Origin: Phoronis australis
Lineage: Eukaryota; Animalia; Phoronida
Direction of reading: 5' to 3'
NCBI GenBank assembly: GCA_002633005.1
Contig: NMRA01000862.1
Span: 1 to 64,000 of the forward strand
DNA length: 64,000 nucleotides
In this document: one piece after another, positions 7,174-57,868 of the stretch
How positions within the stretch are numbered: the first letter of the stretch is position 1
Layout of the letters: every line of letters begins with the position of its first letter
The notes under the pieces: generated by a model
Database searches by the model: none
What the model was told of the DNA's origin: nothing
What the model saw: the letters and a program-made list of their open reading frames with translations, nothing else
Program-made: the position numbers and the translations under genes

Positions 7174-7529
7174 ATGCATTTGCCAATTTATATACATCAC
7201 TGTAAAGATAACTGATTTTTCTAAGCCCAGAATTCTTTGTAGGCCCATAAATGAAATGAACCTTACCTGAAAATGTTGTGTGACATAATTGAAGTTGAAG
7301 AATTACTATGCCCTCAATTTTCTGTGTGGAGGTTAAGTTCATTCATCAAAGAATCCCAATCAAACGTTTAAATTACCTATATATTTATTGGTTGGCAGTG
7401 AAACATGCACAGACAAGTTTTCATTTACTAAGAACATATTTTACAAGAAAACAGGTGTTCTATAACTTGATAAAATATGCAAGCCAAAAACCTAGCATAG
7501 GAGTCACAGTTAGAATTTTTCTAAAAACT

Positions 7530-9420
7530 TAGACCAAAATCGATTTCAAAATCTCCCAATTTTATAGCACATCTACGAAACTTGTAACAATACATACTCA
7601 CCATATCTAATCAAAGTCTTGAAGATAAAAACGCATGGTCTTTAACTTGGTTAACTATGAGAAGCAAAAAGCTAGCCTGACTGCGGCCAAAAATGGAATT
7701 CGCACAAATTTTTCTACATTCTCAAACCAAAATCGCCTTCAAAATCTACAATTTTTGGAGCACATCTGAGAAAGTTACTAAAGTATATATTCATCATGTC
7801 TAATGAAAATCTTTAAAACAAAAACACATGTTCCTTAACTTGATTACCTTTGAGAGTCAAAAAACTAACATCACTTAAGCCGATAATGAAATTCGAAAAA
7901 TTTTTTAGTACATACTAAAAACAAAATCGCCTTCAAAATCTACAATTTGTGGAGCACATCTGCGAAAGTTGGTAAAGTATATATTCATCATGCCTAATGA
8001 AAATCTTGAAGACAAAAACACATGGTCTTTAACTTGATTAACTGTGAGAAGCAAACAGCAAGCATGACAGGGGCCAATAATGAAATTCGCACAAATTTTA
8101 CTATATATTCAAATCAAAATCTCTTAAAATCTACAATTTTTGGAGCATATCTGCGAAAAATTTTACAGTGCATATTCATCATGTTTAATGAAAGTCTTTG
8201 AGACAAAACCACATGTTCCTTAACTTGATTACCTTTGAGAGCCAAAAAACTAACATCACTGAGGCCGGCACTGAAATTCGCACAAATTTTAGTACATACT
8301 CAAAACAAAATCGCCTTCAAAATCTACAATTTGTGGAACACATCTGCGAAAGTTTGTAAAGTATATATTCATAATGTCTAATGAAAATCTTGAGGACAAA
8401 AACACCTGGTCTTTAACATGGTTAACTGTGAGAAGCAAAAAGCTAGCATGACTGAAGCCAATAATGAAATTTGCACAAATTTTACTACATAATCAAACCA
8501 AAATCGCCTTCAAAATCTACAAATGCTGCAGCACTTCTGCAAAAGTTGGTAAAGTACATATTCATCATGTCTAATGAAAATCTTGAAGACAAAAACACAT
8601 GGTCCTTAACTTAGTTAACAGTGAAAAGCAAAAAGCTAGCATGACTGGGGCCAATAATGAAATTCGCACAAATTTTAGTACATACTCAAAACAGAATCGC
8701 CTTCAAAATCTACAATTTTTGCAGCACATCTGCGAAAGTTGATACAGTACATATTCATCATGTCTAATAACAATATGGAAGACAAAAACACATGGTCTTT
8801 ACCTTGGTTAACTGAGAGAAGCAAAAAGCTAGCATGACTGGGGCCAACACTGAAATTCGCACAAATTTTACTACATACTCAAACCAAAATCTCCTTCAAA
8901 ATCTACAATTTTTGCAGCACATCTGCGAAAGTTGGTACAGTACATATTCATCATGTCTAATAAAAATCTGGAAGACTAAAACACATGTTCCTTAACCTGA
9001 TTACCTTTGAGAGCCCAAAAACTAACATCACTTAAGCCGATAACGAAATTTGCAAAAATTTTACAATATATTCAAACCAAAATCACTTTCAAAATCAACA
9101 ATTACTAGAGCGCATATGCGAAACTTGAAACAGATCATGTTCAAATTGTCTAATGAAAGCCTTGAAGACAAAAAGCAAATAATCCTGAACTTGGTTATCT
9201 GTGAGAAGCAAAAAGCTAGCATAACTGAGGGCGCAATTGAATCCAAAAAGTATTCCAATACGCAACTGCTTTCAAAATCTACAACTCTGGGAGTCTATAA
9301 AACTGTACAGAATATTTTTCTCAAAGTGTATTGAAAAATTAGGGACTATACATACATGTTTTCTTATTTTATTATATACAAGAGCCAAAAAACTGGCATT
9401 GTTAGGTAGCAGTTTGAAAA
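7530..9420. repeat. Tandem satellite/minisatellite, ~192-bp unit, ~10 copies
   Basis: Anchor motif aaaatcgccttcaaaatctacaattt recurs at about 7537, 7730, 7923, 8115, 8306, 8499, 8692, 8885, 9077 and 9265; the outer units are more diverged. Confidence 0.95.
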
Positions 9421-14621: not shown

Positions 14622-15020
14622 TTTGCCAATTACGGTAATTGAAAGAATGTCGACCATTTTTAATTGTCTGAGAACTCTTTCCGCGCGAGCATTTAAAGTC
14701 GGGTAATAAACTTCAGCGTCGACTTGTAATGTCAGAACCTGTCCGAAGTTTTAGAAATAGGCAATATTGGCCGTCCGAAACTCGTGAAATGTGCCGAGAA
14801 ATTCGGCAAAAATTGACGGTNTTTGCCAATTACGGTAATTGAAAGAATGTCGACCATTTTTAATTGTCTGAGAACTCTTTCCGCGCGAGCATTTAAAATC
14901 GGGTAATAAACTTCAGCGTCGACTTGTAATGTCAGAACCTGTCCGAAGTTTTAGAAATAGGCAATATTGGCCGTCCGAAACTCGTGAAATGTGCCGAGAA
15001 ATTCGGCAAAAATTGACGGT
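14622..15020. other. 199-bp near-exact duplication across a single N (probable contig/haplotype overlap artefact)
   Basis: 14622-14820 equals 14822-15020 except one substitution (aaagtc/aaaatc); the copies are separated by n at 14821. Confidence 0.85.
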
Positions 15021-18544: not shown

Positions 18545-20593
18545 ATCATCGCTGATAAGTCAAAGTTTGAGAGTATAAAAATCGTAACCCCAATAATAAT
18601 CTTAAGAAAGAGCTAAACTGTTTAATTAAACTAGCTAATGTTCATAAACAGTATTTCAAAATTGTTGAGGGTGATTTTTCAGAAGGATACTTGTACGGTA
18701 ACCCTAAAACACACAAGCAAGGGTACCCACTAAGACCCACCATTTCTCAAGTGTTAACCCCTACCTATGAAATTGCTAAAACATTAGATAAACTTATTAA
18801 ACAATACCTACCCTATAAGTACAATGTGAAATCTCGTGATGAATTTTTAGATTTATTGAGATCTATTGACGCAACACCAAATTCCAATCCTGTATCTCTT
18901 GACGTCGAAAGTTTATTTACTAACGTCCCTGTTGTTGAAACTGTAGAAATAATAATATCTTCTATGTACAACCATGTATCAATGGCTCCTCCCAGTATTC
19001 CTAAAGAGGTAATTCGAGATTTGTTGTTACTTTGCACTACAGAAGTACCTTTTAGGAACATCGATCGCAAACTGTATTTACAAACCAATGGTGTATCCAT
19101 GGGATCACCTCTTGGACCAACTTTTGCTGATTTTTACATGTGCAACATTGAAGCTAAGGTTATTGATAGTCTTCAGGAAAAGCCGAACATGTACTGCAGG
19201 TATGTTGATGATTTCTTTATGATTGTCAACCATGATAAGCTGATGGAGATCAAACTCTCTTTAGAGCAAAATTCTGTATTAAAATTCACGCATGAATTAC
19301 CAGTTAACAACAAGCTACCGTTCTTAGACGTGCTTATTGATTATGATGAATCTGGCATTAAAACCTCAGTATACAGGAAACCTACATATGATGGGGTTTG
19401 TTTACATGAAACTAGCCAATGTCCTCTGAGATATAAACTCTCTGTTTTGACAAGCTTTTTGAAAAGAGCATATTCCGTTTGCTCAGACTGGAAAACCTTC
19501 AACACCGAGTGTAATCGCATTAAGCAAATTATGATAAATAACGGTTACAGCAATAAGTTTGTTGATGAGAATGTGAAGCTTTTCATAAGCCAGTTGCAGA
19601 AGCCTATGTGTTTAAAACAAGCAAGTGGTTGTACCAAAAAACTATTCTATCGCAACCAATACCATTCACGTTATATTGAAGATGAACGAGTTTTAAAACG
19701 GATCATCCATAATAATGTTATGACCGTTAAGCCAGAAGACAGCTTTAACTTAATTATATATTACCAAAACCACAAAACTAAAGATCTTGTTGTTAAAAAC
19801 AATATGTGCTCAAAATCTGTCCGAGTGTTAGCCAAAACTGACTTGATTTATCAGTTCAATTGTCCCCACCACGAATGTATTTGTTCAAACACTGATTGCT
19901 CAAGGTACGTTGGTTATACAACTTGCACTTTATCTCGCCGGTTATCTATGCACTTACAGAATGGATTAATTAAAGATCACTTCCAAACACTCCACAAACA
20001 GAAAATTTCTCGTTCAGATATTGTTGATAATACCATCGTCAGGTATTTCGAACGTGACCTCTTTCGTCTGAAAATACTCGAAGCTTTAATAATAAAAACT
20101 GAAACACCTTACATAAATTCTCAAGATACTGGGTTCCATCGTACCTTGTCGTTATATAAATAATGTCCATAAGTTGTATCACCTATGTATTTTAATAAAT
20201 TTTACTACGTTACATAGTACAGTGTACATTTAATTTAATTTAGTTTCCATGACATTTCCTTCTGTAATTGCGCTCTTATGTATGCAACCTTATATTCGTG
20301 TTTAATGTCATTGTTCTTGTTTCATGTATCTTACACGATAGCGTTTATGATTTTTTAAATTTATTTGCCTTTGATGAGTGATGTATAGTCAAAGTACTGT
20401 TTTATTAAGATATGTTTTGTACAGAGTTTTATTATATATTTACTCATATATATATATGTGTTCGTGATGCCACTTACACTGGGCGATCTATTATATCAAC
20501 TACCATCCGATGAAAGACACTTGTGTAGACACTACGAAAGTTTGTTGTACAAACTAATTAAAGCAAAGAACAGCTTCCTTTTCAATGCAACAT
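18545..20593 (+). mobile_element. Penelope-like retroelement (PLE), 5'-truncated, with 3' pseudo-LTR and tail
   Basis: RT-EN ORF followed by an AT-rich 3' region, then a short restart of a PLE-type N-terminus (MPLTLGDLLYQLPSDERHLCRHYESLLYKLIKAKNSFLFN, 20467-20590). Coding homology extends upstream to ~18545 (IIADKSKF) across a 1-nt frameshift. Confidence 0.9.
18691..20163 (+). CDS. PLE reverse transcriptase + GIY-YIG endonuclease (N-terminally truncated)
   Basis: YGNPKTHK..PLRPTIS, SLDVESLFTNVPV, GVSMGSPLGPTFADFYM, YCRYVDD, LPFLDV, VYRKPT; C-terminal LIYQFNC...YVGYTT..LSRRLSMH...LEALII...P.IN.Q. Confidence 0.95.
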   Translation: MYGNPKTHKQGYPLRPTISQVLTPTYEIAKTLDKLIKQYLPYKYNVKSRDEFLDLLRSIDATPNSNPVSLDVESLFTNVPVVETVEIIISSMYNHVSMAPPSIPKEVIRDLLLLCTTEVPFRNIDRKLYLQTNGVSMGSPLGPTFADFYMCNIEAKVIDSLQEKPNMYCRYVDDFFMIVNHDKLMEIKLSLEQNSVLKFTHELPVNNKLPFLDVLIDYDESGIKTSVYRKPTYDGVCLHETSQCPLRYKLSVLTSFLKRAYSVCSDWKTFNTECNRIKQIMINNGYSNKFVDENVKLFISQLQKPMCLKQASGCTKKLFYRNQYHSRYIEDERVLKRIIHNNVMTVKPEDSFNLIIYYQNHKTKDLVVKNNMCSKSVRVLAKTDLIYQFNCPHHECICSNTDCSRYVGYTTCTLSRRLSMHLQNGLIKDHFQTLHKQKISRSDIVDNTIVRYFERDLFRLKILEALIIKTETPYINSQDTGFHRTLSLYK

Positions 20594-25687: not shown

Positions 25688-26354
25688 ATCTCGCTATCTG
25701 GAATGTCTGGTCGCCATGCTCACGTTTGTGTCGGAGGTACCGAAAGACGGACAAGGAACTGCACGAACCTTCTGTCAACCATTTTATCTCTAAACAATGC
25801 TTTCAACGTTTCCCAAGGAATTGCTTGCTATAATTCCTCGTCCCCCATAAATGGCAGCTGGTCAGAATGGAAAGTTGCTGTTCAGTGCTCCACCCCTTGT
25901 GGCAATGGAGCACAACTACTCATGCGAAACTGCACGAACCCCCCGCCATCTAACGGTGGATTTGACTGCATCGAAACAAGATATTTAGTGACAACCTGTA
26001 ATCTTCAGTCTTGTTATGTTAAAGGAAATTTGACGGCTTGGTCTCAGTGGTCGAATTGCTCAGGGGAGTGTTGGAATTCTTCTAGGAACAGGACACGGAC
26101 ATGTTCAAACCCTTCTGGAAGTCGAATACTTGAATGTACTGGAAACGCCACTGAATCAGCCCCGTGTGTATGTCCTGTCAAACGCGGCTGGTCCAAGTGG
26201 TCCCGGTGGTCTAACTGCTCGAGCGCATGCGCATGCGGAGTTGCCTTCCGTAACAGAAGTCGGACCTGCTGTAGTCCGGTAGAGGTCTCTGAGAGAACAG
26301 ACTGTCAGGGAAACTACACGAAAGCAGTGAAATGTTCTTTGTCATCGTGCGCAC
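25688..26354 (+). pseudogene. TSP1-repeat exon (4 TSP1 domains; hemicentin/coadhesin-type repeats) with frameshift near the 5' end
   Basis: tttag|AT acceptor (phase 1, matching the previous exon) reads DLAIWNVWSPCSRLC, then shifts frame into GGTERRTRNC..., NGSWSEW..CSTPCGNG..RNCTNPPPSNGG, WSQWSNCS..RNRTRTC, GWSKWSRWSNCS; donor C|gtacgt. Confidence 0.85.
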
Positions 26355-26481
26355 GTACGTAACAGTTTCATTCTAGCATAATTTGGAATTGTTTCTAGAA
26401 GGGAAGCTTATGAGATGCACAAAACCTCAATTTGATTTACTCTGGAATAATTGATAACAACACGTCGTCAGCAAACACGCT

Positions 26482-37629: not shown

Positions 37630-37839
37630 ATGGCATCAACAGTTATTTGTTGCTTTTTATTGCTTGTCACGTCAATGATTGGCAGTATGGGTGCGCGGTG
37701 TCGATTGCAGCCGTTATCGACTTTTTACGGAATGTCTTCAGACGACGCGACACTACCAAACTTTGGAAGGAGATCTTCTGTATCTTTGGACATTTTTCCC
37801 CCAACGTACTTCGCTGGAAAGCCCGTTTCCACTATTTGT
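37630..37839 (+). CDS. NIDO-sushi gene exon 1 (signal peptide + NIDO N-terminal region)
   Basis: MASTVICCFLLLVTSMIGSMGA hydrophobic leader; DDATLP..SSVSLDIFPPTYFAGKPVSTIC matches the NIDO N-region (DD.SS..I.L..PF.FFG..Y..LY); donor TGT|gtaagt, phase 0. Confidence 0.75.
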
Positions 37840-37869: not shown

Positions 37870-39035
37870 AGCCAGCCAGTTAGCTGTATGAAAACCATCG
37901 TCAGCTAGGTATCACTGTGTGTTCAGCTCCGAAAAGCCTCGAAAATGCACACAGCCAAGGTAGTTGTGCTCGTCACCTCGCCGTGAAACTCGTATCAACA
38001 TGTAGAGCTAAAGACTGGACGAGGTGCAAGCAAAATCTTCGAATCTAACAACACTCTCCTTGCCCGTTACAATCGTTTAAGTGAAAACCAATCTAACAAA
38101 CGTCTTTATCTTGCTTGATTCTTCACCTTTTGTAACAATGAAAAGTATTTCGTCGTTTTGAAAACAGTGCGCTCGTGTCACGCGCACGTGCCATTTCCCT
38201 AAATTTTGCGACATCTTTCAGGAGATGAAAACAGCTTCGCAGCCATAAAATTGTTTCTGAAATTCGGTTTGCTGGTAATAAAATGCTAAAACGTTGTAAC
38301 TAAATGAAACCAGTTTCTATAACTTTTTGTGACATCTACACGACTTCGTGGAAGAAGAGCAATTGATTGAAGAATTGGCGAAAAAAGAACCCAGCCAACA
38401 GTTGACATAATATTTCATGGCGCCAAAAGTCGACGTAAAAGATTGCTCCACTACTTCAGTAGCAGAGTAACGGTAAAACACCAATTTTTCCAACACCGTT
38501 AAATCGTTTATTTTACTCAACGAAGGGTGTAGTTTTTAATGACAGTAATTTTGTGTCAGATTTTATCTGGTCAGTTTTTACCCATACCGATGAAAAAGCT
38601 GTATATTTAGTACATGTATACAGCTTTGCGTCACGGCTACCAGTCAGCTAACTGCATGAAGACTATTGTCAAAATACAGCTGAAACCACTGTGTACTAAA
38701 CCTCGAAATTTCACACAGCCCGAGTAGTTCTGCGACTCACCTCGTTATGAAACTTACACAATGTTACATCGTCAGGTAAAAATAACAACCGGCGGGGATG
38801 CTTGCAAAATTTGGGAATCAATCGACACTCGCTTTGCCCGGCGCAATCATTTAAGTGAAAACAATGTAGTATCGTCATTTTCTTGCATAATTCTCCGCGT
38901 TTTGTAACAAACAAAAGTCTTTCGTCATTTTTGAAACAGTACACTCGTGACACGCGCACGCGCCATTTTCTATTTTTGTGACATCTCGCGGGATATGATG
39001 GCAATTTAGCAGCACTAAAATTTATTCTGAATGTG
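37870..39035 (+). mobile_element. Helentron/Helitron-like non-autonomous repeat, one full copy (37870-38627) plus a head-to-tail partial copy
   Basis: 5' agctgtatgaaaaccatcgtca; core ctcgtg.cacgcgcacg.gccattt; 3' hairpin aaagctgtata..tatacagcttt; restarts at ~38645. Confidence 0.65.
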
Positions 39036-39459
39036 ATCATAGATTATAGACAACAGATTCGCAACTCCGGCATATCCTTACGTGCTGAGTTGAACTCTCC
39101 TGACCTATCTGCTGCAGTTTCCGGTCAGTTTATTTTGACGAGAAATACTTGCATCTACTTTACTGTCCAAAACAACGAAAAAAACATTAATTAATATTAA
39201 TTTCGGCATTGAAACGCTTTTCAAAGTGTTTCAATAGTAGAAGTGTTGGTATTATGAGTACTTTTGGTTATGCTACTGGTAATTGATTACAAAATTCAAA
39301 CTTAGGTGCCGACTGATTATGTCGTCTGCTTGCCCAATAGCAGCATAGTTATCGGACAGTTTTTGATTTATGGTTCACATAGGCCTACTGAGAAAACTAC
39401 GAAAGCATGTTTATAAATCAGCATTCTCAAGTGAGCAATTCTTCTGGGAAGTGTTGAGT

Positions 39460-39516
39460 GGTCCTTAAAAGGGCCGTTGGTTGTAGCTATAGCGTGAAAT
39501 GGTTCTTAAAAGAACC
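39460..39516 (-). promoter_or_regulatory. Two tandem histone-mRNA-type 3' stem-loops
   Basis: Minus strand reads caac-GGTTCT-TTTA-AGAACC (39516-39501, perfect 6-bp stem/4-nt loop), then caac-GGCCCT-TTTA-AGGACC-ac (39475-39460, one mismatch), then purine-rich agaagaa ~14 nt downstream. Confidence 0.7.
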
Positions 39517-39526
39517 GTTGAATAAT

Positions 39527-39850
39527 TCAACATAAATCACACAGTATACCATGCTCACTCAAGTACTGAAGGTCCTCTCCATTCAAGTTTCCATCTGGGA
39601 AGGTTGGATGAAAACAGAGAAGATGGCAATATCGATGACAGTTGTATCACCTTATATAAATGTTACCGTTCTCCAACGTTATCACGAACTCTGCCTTTCT
39701 CAATTCTTGTTCCTGGACTCAGAAGTAGCCCTGAACCATAGGGTAAAAAGATATGGCTACGAAAACGAATCAAATTTTGAAAATCATCGCCTTCGTCTGA
39801 TTACGTGTTGCTGTCGCCACACTGTTGTTCCTCCCCAACATCAATGTCGA
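39527..39850 (-). pseudogene. Small intronless PHD-finger-like reading frame with two in-frame TGA codons
   Basis: From the ATG at 39739: MVQGYF*VQEQELRKAEFVITLENGNIYIR*YNCHRYCHLLCFHPTFPDGNLNGEDLQYLSEHGILCDLC-stop, giving [*]x2Cx4Hx2C...Cx2C; an acidic segment lies upstream in another frame. Confidence 0.5.
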
Positions 39851-41733
39851 AAATCTACGTTACAAGTGATGGAAATTTGTGTCCTTTGTTTCTAACTTTT
39901 AAGTATCGTGCACGTGTGCACTGTAGCAACACTTTGTATCTTATTCTTATTTGGCCAATCTGTTGATACAGTAAATTTCCTTATTTATGCCCATCCTGAT
40001 TTGACAGCAACTTGAGCTTGTTGGGTTCTATCATATATTGGGTTGGCATTGGGACCCACATGATGCTTACTCGAATGGGCTTCATTTTCCAAGTATTTCA
40101 AATTGAGGTGAAGTAAATAAACAAAGTGGGTGATTATCATCACCAGAATTTCATCATTTGTATCTTTTGCCGGGTGCTCAAATTTTCTGAGACTATGGAA
40201 TGTCAGATTTGTAAGGTAGAAGTGTTTCGCTGGATTTCCAGGTCTGTGGCGTTATTTATGCCGGACCAAAATTAAAAAACAGACCTTTGTTTAAATCAGG
40301 AGCTGCATGATACACATTTATTAGACGTGCGCAGGCGATGCACTGATCACTTGGAACCATTTTTATGCTTTATTAATGTATAGTTAAACCAAGCTGAGGA
40401 GCTTGAAACCTGATTTACGGTAATTTTTGGCAGTCGTATTTTCTGAAAAATGCTCGTAAGTTGACAACAAAGTTTGATAGCAATGCACTGCAGTTTTGAA
40501 GAAACTCTGTTCATAGGTTACAGATGCGTCACAGAGCGTAACTTTGATGAATTCTAGCTTACGATTTCACCTGTTTCGAAGACCAGGTTTCAACCACTTT
40601 TGGGCTATAATAAGTGGATTTTTCTAAGCACCCTGGCCGCTTATTAGGGCGCATACGGTAATATTTCAGAAGGGCAATACTTAGTATCCTTTATGCACGG
40701 GACCCTTATGTTACAACAGGAGTGGGATTGGCTCATTATGTACCCTACATGTGGCATAGGACTTTACAAAACTGGTTGAAGAATTTTGTTTTCGTCATGA
40801 ACGTTCGTTTGAAAGGCTTAAGTTTAGAAATGTTAGGACTTGAACATTGAAGAATAAAAACAACCTTTACACCCCTCTGGTGTTCCTGTTCCATGTTTTC
40901 AAAGAAGTTGGTTGCATTTTCATAGACTGCAGTCGAGAGATTTTGTGCGGCATATATTCGACATGAAATGAGTGTGTAACCTGCTGTTGAATTGCGAGAT
41001 AGATTTTGACTGGCCGGGTGGTTATTTATGAAGTATTACTGTAATCTTTATTTATGTTAAAGGTTTTACCAGCGTTCTATTTATCTGTACACGAATGTGA
41101 ATTTGTTGAAATCGCTGATCCAAATCCTGGCCAAATGTGCGCATTTTGCTGAGACAAACCGTCTGATCAGGGCCAGCGAAGAGTAATTTGGTTAATTCGC
41201 TCACTAGGCTATGGCTGAACTTCCTCGTAAGGACAAGAGTTTACGAAGAAATTTAGCGGATAATCTACGTCAAAAAGTTTACCAGATAGTTTTCATCAAA
41301 ACGGAGAAAACAAAATTGGATTTGTGAAGACAGGATTAAGTAGTAGAGTCCCTTAAAAACATTCATCTTCGAAGTGCCTTGAACAAATGTATAAAGTCTT
41401 ATTGCTGAAACAACTGCCATTCACGTTGACTCAAGAAGTAAGGTTTTCTTCCCACTGCCGATTATGGGGTCTTAGGATGGTATGGAAGCTAACTCCTTTG
41501 CATTTCGCTTGTGTGGCCGAACAACCGGCCACACAGTAGCCGACCATGATTAGCAGACGGCGTACTTGCCGGAAATTGCACCAGATAATTTAGCTAGGTG
41601 TCGCCAGTTAATAATGACGTAAAGGCTTGTGCGCAAGGTCACAGATTTCGTCCATTGAAAGTATACGGAGATGGCGGTCCATGTACTACAGTCTATGATG
41701 TGATCGAGGAGCGGATAAATTTAAGCTTGGTAC

Positions 41734-42165
41734 AAAGCTGTATACTAAATATACAGCTTTGCGCCGATGTGGGTAAAAAGTGGTAAGATAACATTTGACA
41801 CAAAATTAGTTTCATTAAAAGCTACAGTCTTCCTTGAGTAAACCAAATTATTTAACGGTGTTCGAAAATTGGCGTTCTACCGTTATTCTGCTGCTAAATT
41901 TGTCGAGCGATCTTTAGCAACGGCTTTCGGCGCCATGAAATATTGCGTCACCTATTGGCCAGTTTCTTTTACCGAGTCTTCAATCAACTGCTGTTCTTTC
42001 AAGAGGGTGCGTACACGTCACGAAAAATTATTGGAACTGGTTTCACTTCATTACAAGTTTTTAGAATTTCGATACCGAAAAACCGAATTTCAGATCAAAA
42101 TTTGCTGCTGCGAAGTTGTCGCAAAAATTAGGAAATGGCGCGTGCGAGTGACACGAGCGTACTAT
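41734..42165 (-). mobile_element. Helentron-like repeat family, inverted partial copy
   Basis: Perfect hairpin aaagctgtata-ctaaa-tatacagcttt (41734-41760); the body is the reverse complement of ~38165-38627. Confidence 0.7.
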
Positions 42166-43633
42166 CAAGGAGTGTACTACTACAGGATAGTTCACTCCGC
42201 AATTTTACCATTCGCCGCAATGGTTACCGGTCTAAACACTAGTTAGGAGCGCAGTCCGAACAATCTAAACACTGATAAATTCATACTTATATGACATTCA
42301 ACGTGCAATAAATTACTGTGTGATTGAAAATTGTTAGAATACATAAACTAACATCCACATGAGAAAGAAAATGTGTGTATTAATCAATATTAAAGTGAAT
42401 TTGTTTTTATTCTCTTGGAGCTCTCTTCAAAATCCATCATGGTTTTGTTTCATGTTTGAGTTCTTAACACGGCAATTCTCGTTCCTTATAACAGTTCATA
42501 CATCCATGGACTACATAATTTGAATGATTGCCCCTGGGGATTCATAGGGGAATTCCCCCAGGTGCCAGCTAGCAGGGGGTATCAGGCAAAAACCAGGTGG
42601 GCGCCAAATGGGTGTTGACCCCCTCAAAGGGTTTTCACATGGGAGGAGTGCTAAACAGGTAAAAACCAATAGGTATGTATACCACATGGGTGTTGAGCCC
42701 CACCCATCGTCACACATTTTGGTTGCTCCCCTGACCATCGACAAACATGTTGCTCCCAGCTCACTGCTGGTTTCATCTGCACCCAACAATTTCGCATGTG
42801 TTCCCTATTCAATGCACCAGGCTACTAGCAATGCAGACAATTATTTTGTGCAGTGGGTGTTACACAAGTGAGAAGAAGAAAGCAAGGCAATTCATCACTA
42901 CCACAAAATCGTAATACAATTTTAGAACATTCCATTATTTCTTAGACATGCCAGTATAGGGCTCAATCCCACTCTCCCACTCACCAAAAGTTACAAGTTA
43001 CTTGCTAATCTGTAGAATACCTCACAACTTACAAAATGAAGTAACATTGAGTATATCATCACTCGTCATCGTCAAAGTTCAAATTTCATGACAAAAATTA
43101 AGAGGTACTGAACAGCAATCAAAATTTTCACTACCAAAAAAGACTTGGATGATAAAACCAAAATTTTATTTTATATACCCACTGTTCCTATTATCAAAAA
43201 CAGTAAATATTTCAGGTAAGTTAAAGCCAGACCATGAGGTCACACCAGCAACAATTCTTCTTAAATTCGGTTTACTGACATCAAAAGTCTAAAAACTTAT
43301 AATGAAGTGAAACCAGTTCCAATAATTTGTTGTAACGTGTACGCATCCTCGTGAAAGAACAATAGTTGATTGAAGAATCGGTGAAAAAGAAACTTGCCAA
43401 TACATGTTGGTGATGCGATATTTCACGGCTCCGAAAGCCGAGGCAAAGGATCACACCACAATTTAATTTTATCAGCAGAATACATGTAAGGGTAGAAACG
43501 TCATTTTTCCAACACCGGTAAATAATTTAGTTTATACCACAATTTTAGCCTTGAATGGCAGATACAACCGTGTAATAACAAATAAAGTTATCTCACTAGT
43601 GAGATAACATTTTGGCGGGAAACCGAGGCCGAA

Positions 43634-50286: not shown

Positions 50287-51031
50287 GTGAGGCAATTGGC
50301 ATAGCTAGATAGACTATTTGTTCATGCACAACACATACATGTAGCTTGCTAGCATTTAGACACAGCTGATGGTTATTTTATCGCAGTTTTACGTTTTTCT
50401 TTATAACCTTAAACGCGTGCAATGTTTATCCATCGACCCGACACAAAGTTAATGTGAAATCAATGCTTCGGTACAGTTGTGAATTGTTCATACACGAAGT
50501 GATGAATGTACATGTACATGTATTATTTTTAGAAATAAGCCATAGTCGTCAGATGGTCACGCAAAAACAACAACAAAAAATAATACCCTATGATAATAGT
50601 AACAATAAACTGATAATCGTTACACAGCATCATAACAGAAATGCCATTAGATATAGAGAGTACACGTGTTTACATAACTGTAACATATTTTGTTGCACTT
50701 ATATATCCCCGTTACACGACAGTAGTAGTCTGGCATTGCTTTTTAAAATGAATTTCGTAAGCAATTGACTAACAGAACTAGAGGGTGACGTATCTGAATA
50801 CAAAACACGTTCAATTGTATTGTAAGGGTCAATGCAACTGTTGGAAATCAGAGGTTAACGGGATGTGAAAGGGGCAAATCGTGTTTAATACCACAAAACG
50901 TATTTTAGGATTATTCTGGGACGGGGTAGATTTCTCGAAGTTATGATCGTGGGCAATTCTCTACAACACTTAATTCATCCTGATGCATTCCTTTCTGGCA
51001 ATTAAGGAACTTAAAATTAAATTACTTTTAG

Positions 51032-51214
51032 CTCCCTGCAAGTGGCTGAAAAAGACGTTCCACCATTTGGACCCGTCTTTTGCGGATGACATCTACCAAC
51101 CCGGTCAAGTAGTTTCCATAGAATGCAGCAGTGGTTACCAACGCAATCCTTTCGAAAATAAGTACTTGAAATGCATCGATGGTAATTTTAACGCCACACA
51201 ACCTGCGTGTGAAG
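51032..51214 (+). CDS. NIDO-sushi gene exon 5: sushi/CCP domain 1
   Basis: ttttag|CT...GAA G|gtacgt, phase 1/1; PC...YQPGQVVSIECSSGY...LKCIDGNFNATQPACE. Confidence 0.85.
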
Positions 51215-51791
51215 GTACGTACGAGTAACCGTCAGTAGGAACTTCAGGTGTGTTGAGTAATAAGGGAGAACGTCAGTATTGTCCCCATGCATCGGTGCAC
51301 CAGGTAGCGGTAAACTTGGCCGTGAGAGGGAAATGGTGTATTCAAGATGAAGGCAGAGTTATACACTGAAGCATGTTTCATGGAACAGTGAGAAGAATGG
51401 GGCATGGGAACTATGGGTTTGCGTTGAGAAGACAGCGAGACTATTCCTTTTTCCATCAACAAGACGCCCCAATTAATATGCTTTGCTCGGGTTTAGGGTA
51501 CAGTTGTATAATTGCCGGGCGAAAAACAATGAAGTTGCGTACCCATCTTACCATATAGCGGATTGAAATGAGTTGAGCCTACATGTGTATAGGCACGCAA
51601 ATTTTGCCGACTTTGAGAAGGAATGTTTTGCTGTGAACGGAGAGGAGTGCTACACTGTTAACAGTTGTATGCACGCCTTGTGGTCCCGACAGGGGTTGCT
51701 CGAAATGCAAACACGTCCATGCACCACGAGGCACGGTTGGACGTGTATTAGAGTTTAAAAGAACTTGGTGAAACCAAAATTACTATTTCAG

Positions 51792-52007
51792 CCATCAAAT
51801 GTCGCGGACCGGGCAATACAGGCAGCGTTAAAGCCGACGGGGTAGATGTGACGTCTACGAAAATATTCCAGTTCGGTACCAGTGTAACGTACACGTGCTT
51901 AGGGACCAAAAAATTGTACTCCGGTAGTCTTGTATTGACATGTACCGGCCGTACCATGAGCACATTAGAATACGGCAACTGGGACGGCCCAGTTGCAGTC
52001 TGCAAAG
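51792..52007 (+). CDS. NIDO-sushi gene exon 6: sushi/CCP domain 2
   Basis: tttcag|CC...AAA G|gtgagt, phase 1/1; IKCRGPG...FQFGTSVTYTCLG...GSLVLTC...GNWDGPVAVCK, with no stops. Confidence 0.9.
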
Positions 52008-53811
52008 GTGAGTAAATGTATTCTTTGATATTATAACACTTTGTCAGGCTCTTACGTGAGATTAAAATACACTTGTGAAGCATTCGAAACAACACAACTC
52101 GCACTTGTTGGTGGAGCTAATTTTCAAATTGCAGATGCATATTGAGGCTAGTGGTAAACAGCATTTCTCGTTTAACCCTGTAAAGCAAGTGGTTGTGAAA
52201 CTTGCAATACATGCATGTTGGACGTTAAAGAATCATTAGTCATTTGAGCGCACGAGATTCGTTTTTCTTTCGCCAGACTTCACTATATATTAATCAAGTT
52301 GGTCCTTATTGAGAGTGGACGTATGTGTTAATGGATAAATAGTGCTGGGCACGAGGGGACGAATTGGGAATTTGTGACCCGATACAGGGTAAAATGCAAA
52401 CGTACGTTGGAATAGGGCTATTCGACAATCTTAATATTACTAGATGGCGCGCGTGTACTACTGGTTGTAGATTAAGCAGCCTCGATTTTGCGAGCCCTTT
52501 ATTACATGGTTAAATGGCATGCAGCCGTGCCAACTGAAACGGAGATTGCGTGAAAAGGGTGCTTCTACGAGAGGACGTAAGCATGATCTTATAAAAATGT
52601 AAGGTTTGTAATTATTTTAACGATAATCCCATGTTAACAATACTGACGCCTGGTAACTGAGGTAGTGGCCGATGTCGACTTCGAGGCAGTCGCCAGTCGC
52701 GTATATCATTGTTTGTTGTTATGTGATTTACTATACTTGACGTAGCACTCGGGATCTTGTCGTACATGAAAGCAGTATTATCAATGTTTGAAATGATTTG
52801 TAGCAAGGTTTTCAGTGACAGGTAAATGTACATGAGTCAATGCTGAATTTTTATGCTGACAACTCGATATTGGTTATTAGTGAAGTAAGATTACAATCCA
52901 AGCCTAAAGGGTTTGTGACAAATGTCCCTTCTCCTATGCCATCCGGAAATGACATGGAAATATATCATGTATGTTTGCACCTGACTTTTGATTTTTAGTT
53001 TTGAGGGCTAGTACGGTGCAGGGGAGATATGCATCGCTTCTGCAACCGTCCCTGAGTGGACAAAAATTTGTTTTAAGCAATTGACAGCAGCTAACCAGCA
53101 AGATCTTCCTGTCCAGTGCAGATATGTTGTCAAAGCCTACTTTCTATATCGGAGATAAAGAACAAAGCCTTTGAAAAGGGACAGCTATTTTTAAACAAAG
53201 ATACGTAAGTTGCTTTGTTAATTTACTTATTCAGGTCCTTAGCGGAGGTTGCCATAGGGGTTTGGTTTTGTAAAATTTGGTGCAATTGAATGTGTGGAAA
53301 TAACAGTTAATAATGTCTAGGGGAAAGAGCACGGTGAGGTAATTCTTAACCTTCAAGAGGTTCTTTCACGTTTCATGAAATTGTTTTGTTATCTATTATA
53401 AACCCATAAAAATATTACATATTCTAAATTCTCAATGACTGTGCAGTCTTAAATCGTGCCTTGAAATGTTACAATTCGTTTATAAATTCATGACTGTCAT
53501 TTTTCACGAAAATTGCGTACGAATGATTTCATAGTTGAGCATATTATTCTTACTGCTATTACGCAAACAATGGTGCCTGGGATTTTTAATTACTCTTAAA
53601 CAACAGAAAGATTATCCATCATTTTTAAATGACCCAAATATTCACATCTTCTATTAGATGAAAAATGAAAAAATCTGAGAAACGGTTCCCTCAGCCATAA
53701 GTGTGCTTGACACACCAATAAATCTGTAATCGGTGTTTCAAATTGCTGAATGTATCAGAAATCAAAAGGCTTGATAATGGGTAACAGAGGCTTGACGTTG
53801 TCTCAAATAAC

Positions 53812-57131: not shown

Positions 57132-57500
57132 TTAAAGGAAAAGTCACCCTCTTTAATTAGTCTTTTTTACCGTCTTAATCGGTCTATATCCACATCACCT
57201 CGTATACTGTCGATCTTACCTCGCCGAGAGGTGTCGCGTTAACCTGTGAGGAAGATGAGAACCGACGCAGCGACATCAGTGGTTCTTCTGCAGAGTGAGT
57301 ACCGCTGTGGTGATCTGTATCGTTCCCGCTTACACGAAATATGAAGCTGCGAGGAAAGCAGGTATATCGTTTTTTCGATTTCCTCGAGAGCCCATAATGC
57401 TTCGGAAGTGGCTCGCGGTAGTGAAAAATGAAAAGTACGCCGTTAATACCGAGTATGAGGCCATGAAACTTCTCCGTGTCTGTTAGTGGCCTGCATTTTG
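57132..57500 (+). mobile_element. THAP-domain DNA transposon 5' relic (Kolobok-like)
   Basis: ttaa|AGGAAAAG terminus followed by CIVP...ISFFRFPREP..LRKWLAVVK...RVC and a frameshifted LHF (THAP signature). Confidence 0.6.
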
Positions 57501-57868
57501 TCTCATCGGTTGTTGATCAGTTTTTGATCATGGAGAATTGTAGTTGGCCATGAAAACATAGACATTTACAATTAATTCAAGGCGTGAGAGCATACCGTTT
57601 TATACATGTATAACCTGTTTGATGATTGAGTCGTTCGTGAGGTGTCTGTTTGTTCCTCATCTGGGTGTAGGATGGTTTTGCCGTGGTATAATACAACAAT
57701 TAACAGAATTAGTTTGCTTAACTGTTTTTAATTGATTTTAAGAACACAAGCAGCTCCCTCTAAAATATAAAATCATACTAGATTTGTTCATCCAACTCAT
57801 TGAATACCAAACTAAAGCATACACATGTACAATATGCGTTAGTTGAATGATGGCTGATCTAAAGTGCA

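Follow-up and report, generated by a model that had tools for sequence, protein, structure and literature searches.

The window analysed here, a stretch of 64,000 nucleotides from Phoronis australis (contig NMRA01000862.1, positions 1 to 64,000), carries a decayed copy of a P-superfamily-like DNA transposon. Inside it, on the minus strand, lies the broken gene of a small PHD-type zinc-finger protein, closed behind its stop codon by two tandem stem-loops of the type found at the 3' ends of metazoan histone messenger RNAs (mRNAs) and, behind the second of these, by a purine-rich box. The features of the element and its borders are as follows.

39031 to 39037: target-site duplication ATGTGAT on the 3' side of the element, identical to the 7 nucleotides (nt) at 41698-41704
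39038 to 41697, minus strand: decayed, non-autonomous P-superfamily-like DNA transposon of 2,660 bp, recognised by its CATAGA inverted ends, the duplication, the THAP domain and the break-off of reads at 39038
39038 to 39077: 3' terminal inverted repeat, short and imperfect (agreeing with the opposite end at 10 of the outermost 12 positions and at 21 of all 40)
39439 to 39445, minus strand: purine-rich box AGAAGAA, candidate U7-binding element (histone downstream element), at +15 to +21 after stem-loop 2
39460 to 39475, minus strand: histone-type stem-loop 2, with 5 of 6 pairs, 25 nt past stem-loop 1; Histone3 27.9 bits, E 2e-5
39501 to 39516, minus strand: histone-type stem-loop 1, with 6 of 6 pairs, starting 10 nt past the stop codon; Histone3 22.8 bits, E 0.0018
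39527 to 39845, minus strand: pseudogene of an intronless C4HC3 PHD-type protein of about 105 codons, delimited by the alignment of protein P0003, the family profile and the differences from other copies
39896 to 39905, minus strand: TATA-like word TACTTAAAAG
39955 to 39960, minus strand: inverted CCAAT-type word GATTGG, candidate promoter element
40339 to 40580: piece of a far more abundant repeat within the element, limits approximate
41356 to 41547, minus strand: broken THAP zinc finger with one in-frame stop (Pfam PF05485, E 2.8e-7, 31.6 bits, cut-off 23.9)
41658 to 41697: 5' terminal inverted repeat, short and imperfect, matching the other end in sequence
41698 to 41704: target-site duplication ATGTGAT on the 5' side of the element; the following base, C, also permits an 8-bp reading

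The transposon copy and its PHD-type gene

The ends of the element are marked by CATAGA at 39038 and by its reverse complement finishing at 41697, with ATGTGAT outside both, as read from this one copy; positions 39038-39073 are also part of another, more abundant repeat (loose read ends at 39073). The repeat piece at 40339-40580, outlined by depth peaks and by loose ends at 40339, 40388, 40438 and 40511, is probably nested in the element. The THAP domain shares its strand with the PHD frame, begins 150 nt in from position 41697 and is likely the start of a lost transposase gene. THAP domains are found in other transposon superfamilies too. The element is assigned as P-like because a THAP domain and a 7- or 8-bp duplication together fit the P superfamily, whose members have both (PMC3698922, PMC4168063). 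With P, 1360/Hoppel and Galileo it shares the THAP domain near the 5' end, the inverted ends and the 7-bp (or 8-bp) duplication, whereas it differs from them in being without a catalytic core and in having a second gene that encodes a PHD-type finger standing alone; such a gene is undescribed for P elements in the accounts given in those papers. Copies of a dispersed repeat, in both orientations (38231-38596, 41726-42163 and 43240-43393), flank the element, which appears to have inserted among them. A second THAP domain lies elsewhere in the window (57259-57483, plus strand, E 1.6e-5), with a CATAGAC word at 57557, and is possibly another P-like remnant.

The PHD-type gene ends with TGA at 39529-39527. 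The family protein P0003 aligns to the window from 39845 to 39587, over both frames and with a 1-nt shift (E 7e-24), which fixes the start of the gene and its length of about 105 codons; a profile of the family matches at E 9e-25. An intron before the PHD part, suggested by a pyrimidine-rich stretch near 39730-39770, is rejected, as P0003 aligns straight through it with the 1-nt shift. The start codon is lost (ATT), there are in-frame stops at 39803-01 (TAA), 39721-19 (TGA) and 39649-47 (TGA), the last of these at the third Cys, the first Cys pair is decayed and a 1-nt frameshift lies near 39755, so this copy is dead and probably without function. In an earlier, sequence-only reading of the window, the minus-strand motifs (GATTGG at 39960-39955, the stop, the hairpins, the spacings, AGAAGAA and two TGA codons) were all placed correctly and the copy was rightly described as decayed; the end given to the frame was also right, although the start is further upstream, near 39845, beyond the frameshift.

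Comparison with public sequencing data, which took in other copies at least 80% alike in pieces of a few hundred bases, more diverged copies lying outside it, reveals that the element is multi-copy, with every bin from 38600 to 41000 covered in all four runs. Reads from other copies stop at 39038 and have different flanks (204 reads in X10, agreement 0.58; 158 reads in X11, agreement 0.56), and in 19 X10 reads sequence resembling 39095-39124, close to an end of the element, is joined to position 39704 within the frame. The end of the frame occurs together with the hairpins in other copies, in an X1 contig covering 39429-39586 and an X5 contig covering 39418-39694; the frame and the hairpins travel together in this element family. 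The mobile-element origin proposed in the sequence-only reading is thus borne out by the ends, the duplication, the THAP domain and these copies, and the viral or host-gene origin that it had allowed for is unsupported for this copy. The TATA-like word that it reported does stand at 39905-39896, but its role as a TATA box is doubtful, because its TTAA (39899-39902) is interrupted in some copies by a CCC-ended insertion (loose ends at 39901-39904 in seven X1 contigs, in X8 and in 30 X10 reads).

For most of the frame sites listed, the alternative letter is carried by 14 to 39 X1 contigs; the X1 counts that follow are summed depths, which are not copy numbers. A Cys codon occupies the site of the TGA at 39649-47 in other copies (17,029 of 17,564 in X1; 62 of 69 X10 reads), as it does in X12 and in X8, which is from another organism. 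At 39721-19 a Trp codon is rare (236 of 9,788 in X1; 8 of 71 X10 reads; 5 of 7 in X12), and so is ATG at 39845-43 (218 of 16,032 in X1; 6 of 67 in X10; 3 of 3 in X12). The alternative base at 39462, which makes hairpin 2 fully paired, is present in nearly all other copies (36,616 of 36,898 in X1; 66 of 67 X10 reads; 9 of 9 in X12). Copies of an intact-looking, more diverged subfamily are thus a minority of those compared; their share is higher in RNA than in DNA, a hint only, given the small numbers and different individuals. Since the missing start codon and the 39721-19 stop are common to most of the copies compared, the subfamily of the present copy probably lost the PHD gene before spreading, i.e. 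it spread already dead.

The broken frame alone has no PHD match in Pfam and no relatives in a word-based protein search. Read with X, it retrieves five relatives among 1.84 billion representative proteins (best E 2.7e-21), and a profile search extends these to 29 clusters, mostly of 106-111 residues, the sole cluster with a species name being from the mussel Dreissena polymorpha. The full C4HC3 spacing is present in 28 of 35 family proteins, an acidic S-D-T-E-S-type motif in 29 of 35, and a Tyr at the aromatic-cage position in 31 of the 32 proteins that match the pattern. H3K4me3 readers carry Trp at that position. Protein P0004 passes Pfam PHD_NSD (27.7 bits against a cut-off of 23.9), whereas the other four of the five proteins scanned pass no Pfam cut-off, PF00628 remaining below its own. 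A structure model of P0004 (pLDDT 79.8; a first model, pLDDT 45, was set aside as unusable) has PHD fingers as its top 19 VIA structural matches (best Z 4.4, rmsd 3.4, 65 residues aligned), and PHD clusters make up nine of the ten Atlas rows shown, all of which are under 0.9 and count as leads only. The PHD-type spacing that had been read from the frame therefore belongs to a real C4HC3 family, and the profile check proposed for it holds for its relative P0004, but not for the window's own frame.

These proteins form a conserved, hitherto unnamed family of roughly 110-residue C4HC3 PHD-type proteins. A length-free search gave no relative of more than 169 residues, no dedicated search for fused forms being made, and no family loci were found in viral contigs or prokaryotic genomes. 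Five of the proteins, P0004 and P0007-P0010, are 88-98% alike and lie each on a separate contig of 0.7-9.2 Mb, as dispersed intact copies or from several assemblies. PHD fingers encoded by cut-and-paste elements are described for RAG2/RAG2L (PMC4411706), where, as here, the finger sits on the transposon's second gene in the case of RAG2L, and for Rehavkus, where it is inside the transposase (PMC6446971). The present protein differs from both in its size of about 110 residues, without a Kelch or transposase part, and in its long, helix-bearing first loop and the acidic S-D-T-E-S motif of its family, and its gene differs in the histone-type 3' end.

Tandem histone-type hairpins here and elsewhere

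Both hairpins have a 6-bp stem, a 4-nt loop, G-C at stem position 2 and U at loop position 3, hairpin 2 with one mismatch. Their scores with Rfam Histone3 (RF00032; gathering score 34 bits) come from a search of 1.5 kb; the covariance scan proposed in the sequence-only reading thus yielded matches to both, albeit under the gathering score. The purine-rich element of histone genes lies about 15 nt past the cut site (PMC5435866); AGAAGAA begins about 10 nt past the predicted cut, i.e. slightly closer. Behind hairpin 1 there is no purine box, 3 of the 8 bases from +15 to +22 being purines. A loose hairpin pattern matches the window five times, and 60 Markov-resampled windows 0.63 times on average, a control that flatters the result because the other three matches look unlike histone hairpins; folding of 39430-39530 as a single strand is unexceptional (z -1.26).

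The arrangement resembles the 3' ends of metazoan histone mRNAs (RF00032; stem-loop-binding protein (SLBP), U7 small nuclear ribonucleoprotein (snRNP) and CPSF73) with respect to the 6-bp stem and 4-nt U-rich loop, the AAC before and ACC/ACT after the hairpin, the position close behind the stop and the purine box downstream, and the gene itself resembles a histone gene in being short and intronless with a CCAAT word. It differs in that the gene is a non-histone, PHD-type one within a transposon, in the two tandem hairpins, in the sub-cut-off Rfam scores and in that processing is predicted only; furthermore, hairpin 1 starts 10 nt past the stop, compared with a metazoan median of 30 nt (10.64898/2026.10.14.759114). 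As to the three findings that the sequence-only reading had named as contrary to its case, we observed instead Histone3 matches, though of sub-cut-off score, zinc-finger relatives of the frame, and hairpins that adjoin this frame in other copies.

A pattern of two hairpins 10-40 nt apart recovered 120 metagenome loci, which came from 11 of the 64 parts that make up the collection. The sequence upstream was queried with six frames taken from the loci, five of them picked by shared motifs. Tc1/mariner-like sequence on the same strand lies upstream in 92 of the 120 loci (three have an opposite-strand match only and 25 none), and in 83 of the 92 the match finishes within 63 nt of the hairpin. One query, L049, the only one tested by structure-based comparison, matches Sleeping Beauty transposase (E 1.3e-4) and SETMAR. 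The longest upstream frame of at least 60 codons gave no histone match in any of the 89 loci scanned; Pfam matches in these frames were DDE_3, below cut-off, in two, zf-Tnp_2 in one and P2RX7_C in two. The positions +15 to +22 after the second hairpin, which are outside the search pattern, are 78-91% purine across the 120 loci. None of the loci matches the element's DNA or its translation, and a stricter tandem-hairpin pattern had no matches in viral contigs.

Several of these loci have features of their own. L038 (206-940) and L070 carry a 222-codon P2RX7_C frame that stops 13 nt before two perfect histone-type hairpins, P2RX7_C being a domain known from Kolobok-type transposons. L103 has a piggyBac-type C-terminal finger (zf-Tnp_2, E 6e-7) and then an array of at least six histone-type hairpins. 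L005 (674-1740), L009, L019 and L106 have frames and then two perfect hairpins with no purine box at +15 to +22; the frames of L005, L009 and L106 are without a Pfam match, L019 lying outside that scan.

Readings of the gene and its 3' end

We consider the best explanation, with a probability of about 0.6, to be that this is a dead copy of a P-superfamily-like transposon whose second gene encoded a small PHD-type finger and ended in two histone-type stem-loops, the active element likely having used the host SLBP/U7 pathway rather than polyadenylation. On this explanation a short, intronless transcript would begin below the CCAAT word; U7 snRNP would pair with AGAAGAA and CPSF73 would cut about 5 nt past stem-loop 2, near 39455, with stem-loop 1, which is without a purine box, perhaps serving as a second SLBP site. 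Synthesis and translation of the message would hence fall mainly in S phase, or oocytes would keep it in store, and histone-type processing would limit the protein to these two settings, in which a cut-and-paste element gains copies and may reach the germ line. The protein, with its acidic N-terminus and conserved Tyr at the aromatic-cage position, most likely assisted the transposase by binding chromatin, in the way that the PHD finger of RAG2 serves RAG1, and may have bound histone tails.

More tentatively, several animal DNA transposon superfamilies might have independently tied genes to SLBP/U7 by means of a tandem-hairpin cassette, which the P-like lineage would use for a stand-alone PHD reader, made available during S phase or in oocytes so as to guide or protect its transposase on chromatin. 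According to published descriptions, no cellular mRNAs other than those of histones lack a poly(A) tail (PMC4604434, PMC9745837). If our interpretation is correct, there are non-histone protein-coding messages without poly(A) tails, and a conserved transposon gene with a histone end breaks the histone-only rule; transposons would gain a means to time their activity to replication or eggs, and RNA sequencing with poly(A) selection would undercount such messages. One published precedent is known to us, the Tm1-HH elements (Mutator/Foldback) of root-knot nematodes, among them Cg-1. These non-coding elements are likewise non-autonomous DNA transposons with a histone hairpin between their inverted repeats (PMC3169594). 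Tm1-HH are described there as carrying the hairpin motif with no obvious coding frame and with 9-bp duplications, whereas the present element has a THAP domain, a 7-bp duplication and a conserved protein-coding gene that is closed by two hairpins. Beyond that report we found none of a histone hairpin in a transposon, the literature covered being mainly other than subscription journals and Repbase Reports; the terms 'transpos', 'non-histone' and 'tandem' are absent from the main text of a 2026 survey of histone 3' processing (10.64898/2026.10.14.759114).

A number of results weigh against the preferred explanation. Both hairpins are below the Histone3 gathering score, and a scan of the whole window at that score was empty. 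Raw RNA reads in X10, X11 and X12 lie on both strands, 59-82% of them continuing into unlike sequence, and molecule ends do not accumulate at either of the predicted cut sites; molecule starts pile up in one place only, eight at 39486 in X10, which fits a cut after neither hairpin. Because the library type is unrecorded, these reads neither support nor refute processing. Pfam matched no transposase catalytic core in the three minus frames of 39040-41697, for which reason the element is called P-like and not a proven member; a P-type core may have been deleted or have decayed, and P membership is incomplete. A word-based search gave no longer-protein relatives of the THAP piece, which is weak evidence, and no autonomous relative was found. 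On the side of the protein, the two closest relatives are themselves broken or partial, and the intact proteins form a sister group, the window frame being 37% identical to P0004; for that group, a place in transposons or a hairpin end would be an extrapolation. The structural Z-scores are low (at most 4.4), and Foldseek with the P0004 model returned nothing at E 0.001 or better (best E 0.24). The 120 tandem-hairpin loci collapse to only 16 clusters, with 107 loci in four, so independent cases of the layout are few; the purine box is present in 7 of the 16 and lacking in 9, and none of the 120 loci encodes the PHD-type family.

That the finger is a Slx1-like RING variant, which bound the transposase or a ubiquitin enzyme and was no histone reader, even though processing was histone-type, is somewhat unlikely. 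It would account for the Slx1 C-terminal finger being the top profile hit among solved structures (E 0.048-0.072, at best 0.048), for the Foldseek ranks 3-5 of Slx1, for the helix between the sixth and seventh ligands in the P0004 model and for the Ile two places before the last Cys pair in the family; a helix at that position is a RING-like trait, and an aromatic residue is usual where the family has this Ile. The Pfam PHD_NSD match, the VIA matches and the Atlas clusters described above argue for a PHD finger instead. We also think it virtually out of the question that the gene is live, with its TGA codons decoded as selenocysteine or cysteine. The TGA at 39649-47 does stand at a zinc-ligand Cys position, as had been proposed, but the Cys codon of other copies at this site refutes selenocysteine for the present copy, no SECIS element matched Rfam at gathering score in the window, and the TGA at 39721-19, suggested as a second such site, aligns to Trp; a TAA stop, the frameshift and the absence of a start codon are further obstacles.

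The hairpins could, alternatively, be passenger cargo, a host PHD gene or histone 3' end caught by chance in the style of Pack-type elements, and never have served the transposon. The gene is already dead in most copies compared, and it may be recent descent, not selection, that has left the hairpins nearly uniform; the authors on Tm1 took their histone hairpin for captured host sequence (PMC3169594). We nevertheless regard this as unlikely, considering that the hairpins start 10 nt past the stop of this very gene, that the purine box sits where its offset would be expected, and that the same tandem layout stands behind unrelated frames (Tc1/mariner-like; zf-Tnp_2 in L103; P2RX7_C in L038 and L070), with no histone sequence adjoining those hairpins in the frames scanned. 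Still less probable is that the PHD gene and its histone-type end are a functional unit of another element, or a free mobile gene, merely nested in the P-like copy. The THAP region (41356-41547) is outside the read comparisons, so the THAP-PHD link rests on this copy, other nested repeats do exist in the element, and the compared pieces are a few hundred bases long; however, read depth is unbroken from 39038 to 41000 in all four runs, the 19 X10 reads connect the element's terminal region to the frame, and the THAP and PHD frames are on one strand inside one target duplication.

The surrounding window

Relative to a host gene the element is in antisense orientation, with a putative first exon on one side of it and two sushi exons on the other.

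About 37630 to 37839: putative first exon with a signal-peptide-like start and a GTAAGT donor, predicted from the sequence
50974 to 51225 and 51752 to 52012, plus strand: sushi exons of the host gene, confirmed

Its proposed location in intron 1 of a NIDO-sushi gene is thus upheld as regards the two sushi exons and depends on the putative first exon, but a NIDO domain was undetected in the 67 window frames scanned (of 82 listed). A Penelope-like retroelement is represented by a 530-codon frame at 18571-20163 (plus strand; RVT_1, E 7.5e-9; weak GIY-YIG, E 0.04). A Penelope-type origin of the hairpins is rejected, this frame being 19 kb off and no repeat connecting it to the element. A frame at 25688-26362 (plus strand) has three thrombospondin type 1 repeats. 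Two copies of 199 bp at 14622-15020, 99% alike with a single N between them, may be an assembly artefact, and at 7514-9230 about nine units of 193 bp (81% matches), themselves built of shorter subunits, are arrayed in tandem.

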